This document shows, in pieces, positions 4,395 through 8,471 of a DNA stretch of 11,549 nucleotides. A program made the position numbers and the translations under genes. Source of the stretch: Octopus sinensis (Eukaryota). The notes under the pieces were generated by a model. It saw only the letters and a program-made list of their open reading frames with translations. It was not told the origin of the DNA and did not search any database. Each line of letters opens with the position of its first letter. The stretch's first letter is position 1. The stretch lies in the NCBI RefSeq assembly GCF_006345805.1, contig NW_021826951.1, forward strand, positions 1 to 11,549. The letters are read 5' to 3'.

Positions 4395-4811
4395 AGAGTA
4401 GGAGTGGCTGTGTGGTAAGTAGCTTGCTAACCAACCACATGGTTCCGGGTTCAGTCCCACTGCATGGCACCTTGGGCAAGTGTCTTCTGCTATAGCCTCG
4501 GGCCGACCAATGCCTTGTGAGTGGATTTGGTAGACGGAAACTGAAAGAAGCCTGTCGTATATGTGTATATATATATATGTGTGTGTATATGTTTGTGTGC
4601 CTGTGTTTGTCCCCCTAGCATTGCTTGACAACTGATGCTGGTGTGTGGGTAAGTCCCCGTCACTTAGCGGTTCGGCAAAAGAGACCGATAGAATAAGTAC
4701 TGGGCTTACAAAGAATAAGTCCCGGGGTCGATTTGCTGAACTAAAGGTGGTGCTCCAGCATGGCCGCAATCAAATGACTGAAACAAGTAAAAGAGTAAAA
4801 GTGTAAAAGAG
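4395..4811 (+). mobile_element. SINE family A, copy 2 (essentially full length)
   Basis: Full alignment to the other A copies, with a (gtaaaaga)n-type tail. Confidence 0.93.
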
Positions 4812-5121: not shown

Positions 5122-5456
5122 GCTTGCTTCCCAACCACATGATTCCAGGTTCAGTCCCACTGTGTGACACCTTGGGAAGGTGTCTTCTACTATAATACTG
5201 GGTCGATCAAAGCCTTGTGGGTGAATTTGGTAAACAGAAACTGAAAGAAGCTCATTGTATATGCATGTGTGTGTATGTGTGTGCATGCACGTGTGTCTGT
5301 GTGTATGTGAGAGATATTTTCTGTGTTTGTCCCTCAACACTGCTTGACAACCGTTGTTGGTGTATTTACTTCTCTGTAAGTCAGCTGTTTAGCCAAAGAG
5401 ACATGTAGAATAAGAGAGTATTGTAGTTCGCTTGAAGCGTTGTGTATTGTTTGTAA

Positions 5457-5839
5457 GTGGAGGCGCAATGGCCCAGTGGTTAGGGCAGCGGACTCGCTGT
5501 CGTAGGATCGCGGTTTCGCTTCCCAGACCGGGCGTTGTGAGTGTTTATTGAGCGAACACCTAAAGCTCCAGGAGGCTCGGCAGGGGATGGTGGTGATCCC
5601 TGCTGTACTCTTTCACACCACTTTTTTTCTTACTCTTACTTCCTGTTTCTGTTGTACCTGTATTTCAAAGGTCCCGGCTTGTCACTCTCTGTGTCATGCT
5701 GAATATCCCCGAGAACTACGTTAAGGGTACACGTGTCTGTGGAGTGCTCAGCCACTTACACGTTAATTTCACGAGCAGGCTGTTCCGTTGATTCGGATCA
5801 ACCAGAACCCTTGTCGTCGTAACCGACGGAGTGCTTCCA
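5457..5839 (+). mobile_element. tRNA-derived SINE family C, full length
   Basis: tRNA-like head with A box TGGCCCAGTGG (5469-5479) and B-box-like GGTTTCGCTTCC (about 5512-5523). CpG-rich body. Perfect 11-bp TSD attgtttgtaa at 5446-5456 and 5840-5850. Confidence 0.9.
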
Positions 5840-5927
5840 ATTGTTTGTAAAAAATATAAAGTTTTGAATGGTACAACAACGGACTATAATACAAACAACG
5901 GGCTATATACCTGTTGTAATTTAACCA

Positions 5928-5984
5928 TCCATAGTCCGATGATATTTCGGAATAAAATTCCTTCTTTAGATATTTTTAGATGGA
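5928..5984 (-). ncRNA. Minimal type I hammerhead ribozyme motif, core-mutated copy
   Basis: Minus strand reads CTAAAGA-a-GGAAT-ttt-ATTCC-GAAA-TA-TC. Helix II is perfect but the core has G5A. Confidence 0.55.
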
Positions 5985-6068
5985 GTCACGGCTATAATCA
6001 GTTTTCCAACGGGTTTTTTTTTTTCCGGAAAAAAGAAAAGCCGTTGGAAAACCAATTATAGCAACAAC

Positions 6069-6125
6069 TCCATCTAAAAATATCTGAAGAAGGTATTTTA
6101 TTCCGAAATATCATCGGACTATGGA
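6069..6125 (+). ncRNA. Minimal type I hammerhead ribozyme motif with intact core
   Basis: CTGAAGA (6084-6090), A, helix II GGTAT-ttt-ATTCC (6092-6104), GAAA (6105-6108), palindromic ATAT in place of helix III, predicted AUC cleavage after 6112. Helix I is weak: 2 bp plus tccat/atgga across an internal loop. Confidence 0.65.
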
Positions 6126-6148
6126 TGACCCAATTACAACAGGTATAT

Positions 6149-6945
6149 TCTTTTTCTTTTTTTTCCTTTTTACTTGTTTCAGTCATTTGACTGAGCCATG
6201 CTGGAGCACCACCTTTAGTCGAGCAAATCGACCCCCAGGATTTATTCTTTGTAAGCCCAGTACTTATTCTATCGGTCTCTTTTGGCGAACCACTAAGTGA
6301 CGGGGACGTAAACACACCAGCATCGGTTGTCAAGAAATGCTAGAGGGACAAACACAGACACACAAACAACACACACACACACACACACAATATATATATA
6401 TACTAGCAGTATCGCCCGGCGTTGCTCGGTTTGTAAGGGAAATAACTATAAAGCATTTTTAGAGAGTTAAGCCAAAAAATAGCAAAAAAATGGAAAAAAA
6501 ATGATGGTAAATTTTTTTGAGAGTTAAAAGGGTCGAGTTGCGTCCCCTAGACAGTCTGTGGTTGTTGTTTCTGATTCTCGACCCCATGTCGAATTTATCG
6601 ATTTTTTCAGAACTGGGGGGAACTTTTCACAATTTTCGCTTGCGTTAGTTTTGAATTATGACATTGGGCTATGTGTGGTCAAGTTTCATCAGAATCGGTT
6701 GAAAGCCGTGGTCAGGGAGAGGGTACAAGCAACAGACACACAGAAACACGCACAGACAAACTGCCGTTTATATATAGAGAGATATACATATATACGACAG
6801 GCTTCTTTCAGTTTCCGTCTACCAAATCCACTCACAAGGCTTTGGTCGGCCCGGGGCTATAGTAGAAGACACTCGCCCAAGATGCCACGCAGTGGGACTG
6901 AACCCGGAACCATGTGGCTACTTACCACACAGCCACTCCTGTGCC
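6149..6945 (-). mobile_element. SINE family A, copy 4, inserted in the right arm of foldback 1 and itself interrupted by a Helitron
   Basis: Reverse complement of family A at 6149-6402 and 6783-6945. Short atat duplication at 6145-6148 and 6947-6950. Confidence 0.9.
6403..6782 (-). mobile_element. Non-autonomous Helitron (380 bp)
   Basis: On the minus strand it begins TC (6782) and ends CTAG (6406-6403), with a subterminal GC hairpin ccgagcaacgccgg. Inserted between A and T with no TSD. A short tgtc/tgtg repeat lies near the 5' end, as in Lep1-type elements. Confidence 0.85.
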
Positions 6946-6975
6946 CATATAGTCCATTTTTTTGCATTATAGTGC

Positions 6976-7005
6976 ATTGTTGTACCATTCATTGTTGTAC
7001 CATTC
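6976..7005 (+). repeat. 15-bp tandem duplication attgttgtaccattc x2
   Basis: Direct observation. The opposite arm of the foldback has a single copy. Confidence 0.95.
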
Positions 7006-7629
7006 AAAACTTTTTATTCTTTATATAGAATAAGCACCAGATTCAAAACAAAAAAACAAGTTCTAGGGTTGATTCCTTTGACAAAGAATTCTTCATGATG
7101 GTTCCTTAGCATCATCGCAGCCTGAAACAGGTGAAAAAGTATCATCAGAATATTCTTCATTATGTCATATCTACTCGGTTGCTTCAATTTTAGTCGAAAA
7201 TATTTGATGTGGTCTAGTTCTTAACTTCACTCCAGTTTCTTCTTTATTTTTCGTAATAGTGTAGGTTGGATAGATCTACACAACTACCTTTGATATACTA
7301 TCTCTTTTACTTTTTTATTTATTTATTTATTTATTTCAGTCATTTGACTGCAGCCATGCTGGGGCACCACCTTTAGTCGAGCAAATCGACTCCAGGACTT
7401 AATGTTTGTAAACTTAGTACATATTCTTCTATCAGTCTCTTTTACCGACGCGCTAAGTTATGGAGAAGTAAACACACCAGCATCGGTTGTCAAGCGATGT
7501 TGGAGGGGGGGCAAACACAGACACACAAACATATACACACACATACATATATTTAAAATGTGACCGCGTGTGTACCGTTGGTGATTTTATTCCTCCGTCT
7601 TCCCTTCCTTGAATCTTTCCTTTTTCTAT

Positions 7630-7664
7630 GTTTCTGACAAAGAGCTCCGCTCGAAACGTTAAAC
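7630..7664 (+). ncRNA. Degenerate minimal type I hammerhead ribozyme motif
   Basis: GTTT-CTGACAA-a-GAGC-tcc-GCTC-GAAA-CG-TT-AAAC. Helix I gttt/aaac, helix II gagc/gctc, palindromic ACGT at helix III. One core change (G8A, at a CpG). Confidence 0.65.
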
Positions 7665-7918
7665 CCTCCTTCTTTCCTTCCTTTCCTGAGTGTCCACTAA
7701 CACTATACTTGTTCCACGTCCTCACGCTGTTGTGTTTTCTCTTTATGTTTTCATGTTTGTATAAACTATATATACATATATATATATGTATGTGTATATA
7801 TATATATATATATATATAAAGTTAATCCAAACAAGAAAACACAAAAAAACACAACAACGCGAGGACGTGGAACGAATATAGTATTATTGGACACTCAGGA
7901 AAGAAGGGAAGAAGGAGG

Positions 7919-7953
7919 GTTTAACGTTTTGAGCGGAGCTCTTTGTCGGAAAC
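7919..7953 (-). ncRNA. Degenerate minimal hammerhead motif (second arm)
   Basis: Minus strand reads GTTT-CCGACAA-a-GAGC-tcc-GCTC-AAAA-CG-TT-AAAC. Helices are preserved but there are three core changes. Confidence 0.5.
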
Positions 7954-8471
7954 ATAAGAGAAGGAAAGATCCAGAGAAGGGAAGACAGAGGAAAAAAATC
8001 GCCAACAGTACACACGAGGTCACATATACATATATGCAACGGGCTTCTTTCAGTTTCTGTCTACCAAATCCACTCACAAGGCTTTGGTCAGCCCAAAGCT
8101 ATAGTAGAAGACACTTGCCCAAGGTGCCATGCAGTGGGACTGATCCCGGAACCATGTGGTTGGTAAACAAGCTACTTACCACACAGCCATTTCTACCCCT
8201 CGAAACTTTTTCTATATTTATTGTTTTCGGTAAGATGGTACATAACTGTCTAAATTCATGCATGTCTAGGCTTCTACAATATTAGTTACTGATTAATATT
8301 TAGAATGCTGACATTTAACTTATGTCACAATTTGCAAAGACTAGCAGAGCTAGTTATGCGTTCCCATGGGGCTAATAACTGATTAACTGTATTTGTAATG
8401 GCAAGAGTGACAATGAAATATGTTTGCAGCTCAGTGGACCTAGTGTATTAGGGAAGAGTGGGGGGGTGTAA

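Follow-up and report, generated by a model that had tools for sequence, protein, structure and literature searches.

The window, the whole stretch of 11,549 nucleotides from Octopus sinensis contig NW_021826951.1 that was analysed, contains an older SINE interrupted by a palindromic insertion. The insertion is flanked by a direct repeat, TAGAATAAG, with its left copy at 5406-5414 (+) and its right copy at 7026-7034 (+). When the flanks are rejoined they form one diverged SINE, which aligns across the join with a SINE copy at ~4612-4796, and the repeats are read as the target site duplication (TSD). The repeat is present as the earlier note had described it; the length of 9 bp assigned to it there is not sharp, because alternative matches exist at the end of the element. 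The final 4 nt of the left copy also fit a common form of that end, and the match extends to 11 bp if one mismatch is allowed.

The insertion begins on the left with a tail of ~39 nt at 5415-5453 (-), delimited by comparison with the family (37 nt had been estimated before), that follows the pseudo-LTR (pLTR) in full-length copies and likely contains the ORF start codon; as had been noted, the tail is found on the left end only. A later SINE-like insertion at 5457-5850 (+), the SINE C of the earlier note, bounded by an 11-bp duplication (5446-5456 and 5840-5850), is followed by the left, tailed arm at 5851-6026 (-), a 5'-truncated pLTR with 91% identity to the family majority. The repeat inserted here also sits in another copy of the element (L021). 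The two arms meet head to head at the short palindrome TTCCGGAA at 6023-6030 (no strand assigned), which adjoins the A-tract of the element and was located from the sequence and the table of junctions. The right arm, also a 5'-truncated pLTR, is in two pieces: the first lies at 6027-6148 (+), and the second, which includes a 15-bp tandem duplication (6975-7006), lies at 6947-7023 (+) and runs up to the short, tail-less end of the family. Between them is a later SINE insertion at 6149-6946 (-), itself split by a further insert at ~6400-6780. This nested insert lies within a TA-rich tract and is a candidate Helitron, the label first given to it.

The palindrome has no spacer, with 5905-6026 and 6027-6148 being 89% complementary and pairing resuming beyond the inserts. 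Once both inserts and the 15-bp internal duplication are excised in silico, a unit of 400 bp is left, the arms of which are 87% identical (158/181 columns). The architecture proposed in the earlier note, including insertion as a single unit, is upheld. Both arms also carry the same two-site haplotype, which was found in only 3 arms, against 138 with the majority form.

A CUGANGA hammerhead core had been claimed for each arm, which holds for the right arm (CUGAAGA at 6084) and fails for the left (CUAAAGA at 5969). The right-arm motif, recognized by motif matching at 6084-6112 (+), has a bulged A, GAAA-UA-UC and a helix I of 2 bp, and its helix II carries a single U-U mismatch. The left-arm motif at 5941-5969 (-) is a decayed minimal hammerhead that has lost G5, a residue with an established role in the hammerhead core, and is predicted from this to be inactive. 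Both are of a variant form in the family whose helix I is limited to 2 bp, whereas 4 bp are permitted by the commonest family form. A scan of the window against Rfam (E ≤ 5) returned no hammerhead family and only chance miRNA-type matches on simple repeats; this result is not evidence against a minimal hammerhead, for which motif matching was used instead. With the left core mutated, the right helix II mismatched, and minimum-energy folds in which neither arm forms a hammerhead, both motifs, passengers of the pLTR, are predicted to be inactive.

A second, unrelated repeat of ~210 bp can also be seen in the window, at 7558-7760 (+) and ~7828-8025 (-), arranged tail to tail about a (TA)n tract. 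Its family, with 4446 first-look candidates in the genome, carries a minimal hammerhead of textbook form, made up of CUGACGA, a bulged A, a helix II of 4 bp, GAAA-CG-UU and a helix I of 4 bp. In both window copies the core is mutated. By eye, ~23 of 30 loci picked by pattern start sharply at an initiator-like TCATT, and weak matches to proteins of Penelope-like elements (PLEs) lie alongside in two loci. This repeat is probably the pLTR of another PLE, copied by run-off from a site where transcription starts, and as a candidate SINE-like derivative of a PLE it is to be preferred to the 400-bp palindrome.

The element to which the arms belong

A search with the arm against the 2.72-Gb genome gave 1245 first-look candidates, of which 40 were scored and 30 loci were fetched. 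In most of these 30 loci, the arm lies at the 3' terminus of a longer repeat whose 5' truncation point varies, and upstream of it other copies contain an ORF with the reverse transcriptase (RT) motif YVDDIL and a GIY-YIG domain at its C terminus. Pfam searches with a 394-aa fragment matched RVT_1 (E = 6e-4) and GIY-YIG (E = 5e-3), neither match reaching the curated cut-off. Homologues of full length, 781-1050 aa with 32-37% identity, bear RVT_1, and several also bear GIY-YIG; the closest protein relative is a UniRef entry from Octopus bimaculoides (79% identity). The endonuclease CCHH motif, as defined for EN+ PLEs in PMC8557442, is present in family copies as a C-x2-C in the GIY-YIG core and two histidines. 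The linker before GIY-YIG is short, C-x4-C-x7-C, and resembles the Nematis rows of Fig. S2 in PMC8557442 with one cysteine fewer. One Octopus bimaculoides gene model (P0002) has the 3' half of this ORF fused to a MAP7-family protein and is probably an annotation chimera.

Two near-full-length copies, L061 and L062, show a partial tandem of pLTR, tail, ORF and pLTR with a unit of ~3.0 kb. When sequencing runs were searched for a pLTR-ORF junction, no RNA run was listed as containing one. The tail, the sequence directly after the pLTR, contains an ATG whose reading resembles the N termini of homologues; in L061, this ATG lies 13 nt past the short end and opens an N terminus like those of homologues P0003 and P0005. 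From the arrangement in these two copies, the tail is taken to be the start of the ORF. The family has two fixed 3' ends, ~40 nt apart. No intact ORF was found, every family copy examined being decayed (~80-98% identical to the reference). The family thus shows the features of EN+ PLEs, namely an ORF with RT and GIY-YIG, direct and inverted partial tandems, a tail of 30-40 nt, and a minimal hammerhead motif, and the palindrome arm is almost certainly the pLTR of an autonomous PLE. The Penelope origin suggested in the earlier note is borne out by the linkage of the arm to this ORF in other copies. No description of the family was found in the literature searched, which lay outside Repbase, Dfam and most subscription papers.

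The minimal type I hammerhead motif attributed to these elements is carried by the family, with the tail 3' of it, as predicted. CTGAAGA was found in 142/196 arms, the bulged A that precedes helix II in 196/201 and GAAA in 165/212, and the complete descriptor was matched in 74 of 174 decayed arms. Helix II has 5 bp, the first of which is G-C, with variation mostly confined to the loop. UH comes directly after a palindromic UA. CTGAAGA, the bulged A, helix II and UA-UH are among the marks listed for minimal hammerheads of metazoan PLEs in PMC4209133, where a CUGANGA core, an unpaired base before helix II, G10.1-C11.1, a palindromic 15.2-16.2 and a short helix I are described. Helix II is shorter than the 7-8 bp of the Schistosoma mansoni families in the same source, and the window copy differs further in that helix I has 2 bp and one of the two cores is dead. 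The hammerhead core is more conserved than positions elsewhere (0.95 versus 0.90); this difference was not read as a sign of selection, since the comparison set includes CpG and subfamily sites.

Inverted pairs and their targets

Inverted pairs of arms were collected from 210 loci, chosen as best BLAST matches or near-exact pattern matches, a choice that favours young copies, and gave 85 distinct inverted junctions. Automatic end-calling scored 63 of these as having one tail, 3 no tail and 1 two tails, leaving 18 unscorable where an arm was interrupted, cut, or running off the locus. By-eye revision showed that L201, L208 and L064 have tails with an internal deletion and that L192 is unscorable, after which exactly one tail was present in 66 of 67 scorable pairs. 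The sole exception, the two-tail pair L171, is a complex rearrangement. The three unlinked copies without mid-tail (L064, L201 and L208) are deleted at a short internal repeat of the tail.

Among single copies, the tail is present in 22/51 (43%, with some loci occurring in two samples). In loci picked by their tail, the partner arm was short in 32, tailed in 1 and unscorable in 11, giving P = 2e-7 on the assumption of independent ends at the single-copy rate. Neither arm is consistently the longer: in the 63 pairs, the tailed arm was longer in 19, the short arm in 26, and the two were similar in 18. The arms of L017 have no sequence in common, nor do those of L163, and in both pairs the tailed arm ends at the position of the short end. 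Across five non-CpG diagnostic sites, paired arms were concordant in 165/207 comparisons (80%) versus 58% when shuffled, and concordance persisted in the 11 pairs with arm starts more than 400 nt apart (35/43).

Many targets are simple repeats, with 38 of 63 pairs located in microsatellites. For the remaining pairs, an exact repeat of at least 7 nt spans both ends in 17/25, compared with 4% of shuffled controls, and 15 of these 17 repeats are 9-13 nt; TSDs were measured as the longest exact repeat, so that mutated TSDs are undercounted. Family TSDs are ~9-13 bp in TA-rich targets, and TA adjoins both core ends in most copies.

In the tail-picked sample, 46 of 90 loci are in an inverted pair and about half are single arms (a few loci are duplicates). 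Insertions consisting of the tail and little else (~45-55 nt) were also noticed, some standing by themselves and others paired with a second arm (L180:4493-4540, L150:297-353 and L176:296-343). Such tail-only arms are scarce (3-4 of 86), not above an even spread of 5' ends.

Origin of the inverted pairs

Taken as a whole, the window insertion is probably a heavily 5'-truncated, head-to-head pLTR insertion, likely made through priming by both nicked target strands. For the mechanism itself, we lean, with less assurance, towards two priming events that use one start site per target strand. The endonuclease would nick the two strands ~12 nt apart. One strand would then prime at the tail end and its partner at the short end, a step in which the TA just outside both ends probably assists. 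Both cDNAs would halt at the A-tract, ~180-220 nt along, and be linked via the short central palindrome, and repair of the staggered nicks would yield the TSD. The cDNAs probably came from one RNA or one source locus; the 80% allele agreement does not establish a single RNA, as two RNAs of the same active source also fit. The two SINE-type insertions came later.

A stricter form, which can be put forward only tentatively, would be obligatory asymmetric twin priming, in which one RT dimer uses both start sites of one RNA, one per target strand. PLE RTs are not known to have an RNase H, and without it the same stretch could be copied twice. The anole PLE studied in vitro cuts AT-rich DNA on both strands and extends both, with two internal start sites bounding the tail; hammerhead cleavage is not required, and the protein is predicted to be a dimer (PMC11167929).

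The same element could instead produce the inversion by self-priming, or fold-back, of one strand, which has been proposed for PLEs of rotifers with an antisense template (PMC3846280); the endonuclease would then trim one arm to the short end. Fold-back accounts for the alleles common to both arms, for palindromic centres like that of the window, and for the 18 of 63 pairs in which the arm starts lie within 15 nt of each other. However, fold-back of a tail-primed cDNA requires the tailed arm to be the longer, contrary to the 26 pairs with a longer short arm, and priming at the short end yields a cDNA that lacks a tail from which to copy. Nor does it explain the arms of L017 and L163 or the many junctions with filler or unrelated starts, and we regard it as unlikely. 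Two primings are favoured over it because there is one tail per pair, either arm may be longer and some arms do not overlap.

The proposal of the earlier note that the palindrome is a non-autonomous, retrozyme-like element, transcribed and mobilized as one 400-nt unit, fares considerably worse and is very improbable. In a search with the palindrome, nine other sites among 40 scored match across the centre, junctions cluster near the same A-tract, and most tailed copies lack ORF sequence, with 73 of 86 arms chosen by the tail alone beginning within the final ~230 nt, all of which speak for such a unit. But each of these nine best look-alikes has its own junction and its own arm starts, often with filler, and none has the junction of the window; identical junctions were found only between two near-identical contigs or in local duplications. 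Arm lengths in the family vary continuously, the tail may be on either arm, and an autonomous ORF is linked. The wide variation of the junctions indicates that each palindrome was made at insertion rather than inherited within a non-autonomous family. Single arms accumulate at the same A-tract (21 of the 86 tailed arms start in 24 nt there), which marks it as a truncation hotspot and accounts for the clustering of junctions. The idea that 5' ends accumulate where the hammerhead cuts, or at a start site close to the core, was considered and rejected, as the ends are spread along the pLTR and pile up at the A-tract. Given this hotspot and the proportion of loci in inverted pairs, the palindrome is a frequent by-product of insertion.

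An ordinary MULE/Foldback MITE, to which the long inverted arms and 9-bp flanking repeat of the window copy would be suited, can be dismissed, in line with the earlier note, as the arms form the 3' terminus of an element with a linked RT and GIY-YIG ORF, the ends lack symmetry, single arms make up about half of the loci, and TSD length is variable rather than fixed at 9 bp.

The octopus insertions have counterparts among known systems. As described in PMC3846280 and PMC8557442, Pen2/Pen2a of Adineta vaga are alike in their partial-tandem pLTR-ORF-pLTR arrangement, a 5'-truncated copy in inverted orientation at the 5' end, a tail of 30-40 nt on one inverted pLTR that encodes the ORF start, and TSDs of 9-10 bp; unlike them, the window copy has no ORF on either arm and is a bare palindrome. 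Poseidon of Anolis carolinensis (PAc, PMC11167929) is alike in the two RT start sites that bound a tail downstream of the hammerhead at the pLTR-ORF junction and in AT-rich targets of which both strands are cut and extended, but its ORF begins inside the hammerhead, whereas the likely ATG of the octopus family is in the tail; the main text on PAc does not address which of the start sites serves which arm of an inverted insertion. Non-LTR retrozymes (10.64898/2026.07.22.740005; PMC7229834) are likewise non-coding, hammerhead-bearing, PLE-derived sequences. They are described in 10.64898/2026.07.22.740005 as head-to-tail tandems of hammerhead monomers; the window shows no head-to-tail tandem of the arm, which is present as two truncated pLTRs placed head to head that have no unit family of their own. 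Hammerhead pairs on opposite strands, 100-700 bp apart, have been reported for metazoan PLEs (PMC4209133), and inverted pLTRs, the one-sided tail and the TSDs are also published. What is new here is the count of one-tail pairs (66/67): the EN+ PLE papers word the pattern as "optionally" or "often" in the text of PMC3846280 and PMC8557442, and no counted rule was found in the literature searched, which lay outside Repbase, Dfam and subscription papers and left most supplements uncovered.

The one-sided tail is likely a consequence of the way in which the element begins to be copied. The integration of PLEs is still poorly understood, and this near-strict rule links the two ends of inverted insertions with the two RT start sites demonstrated in vitro. 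Were the twin-priming reading true, every two-ended insertion should have exactly one tail, and fold-back would be unnecessary for inverted pLTRs; with the count, the existing anole system allows a direct test between two primings and fold-back. The element itself is ordinary, and it serves as a warning that in cephalopod genomes a short palindrome flanked by TSDs can be a PLE stub resembling a MITE.
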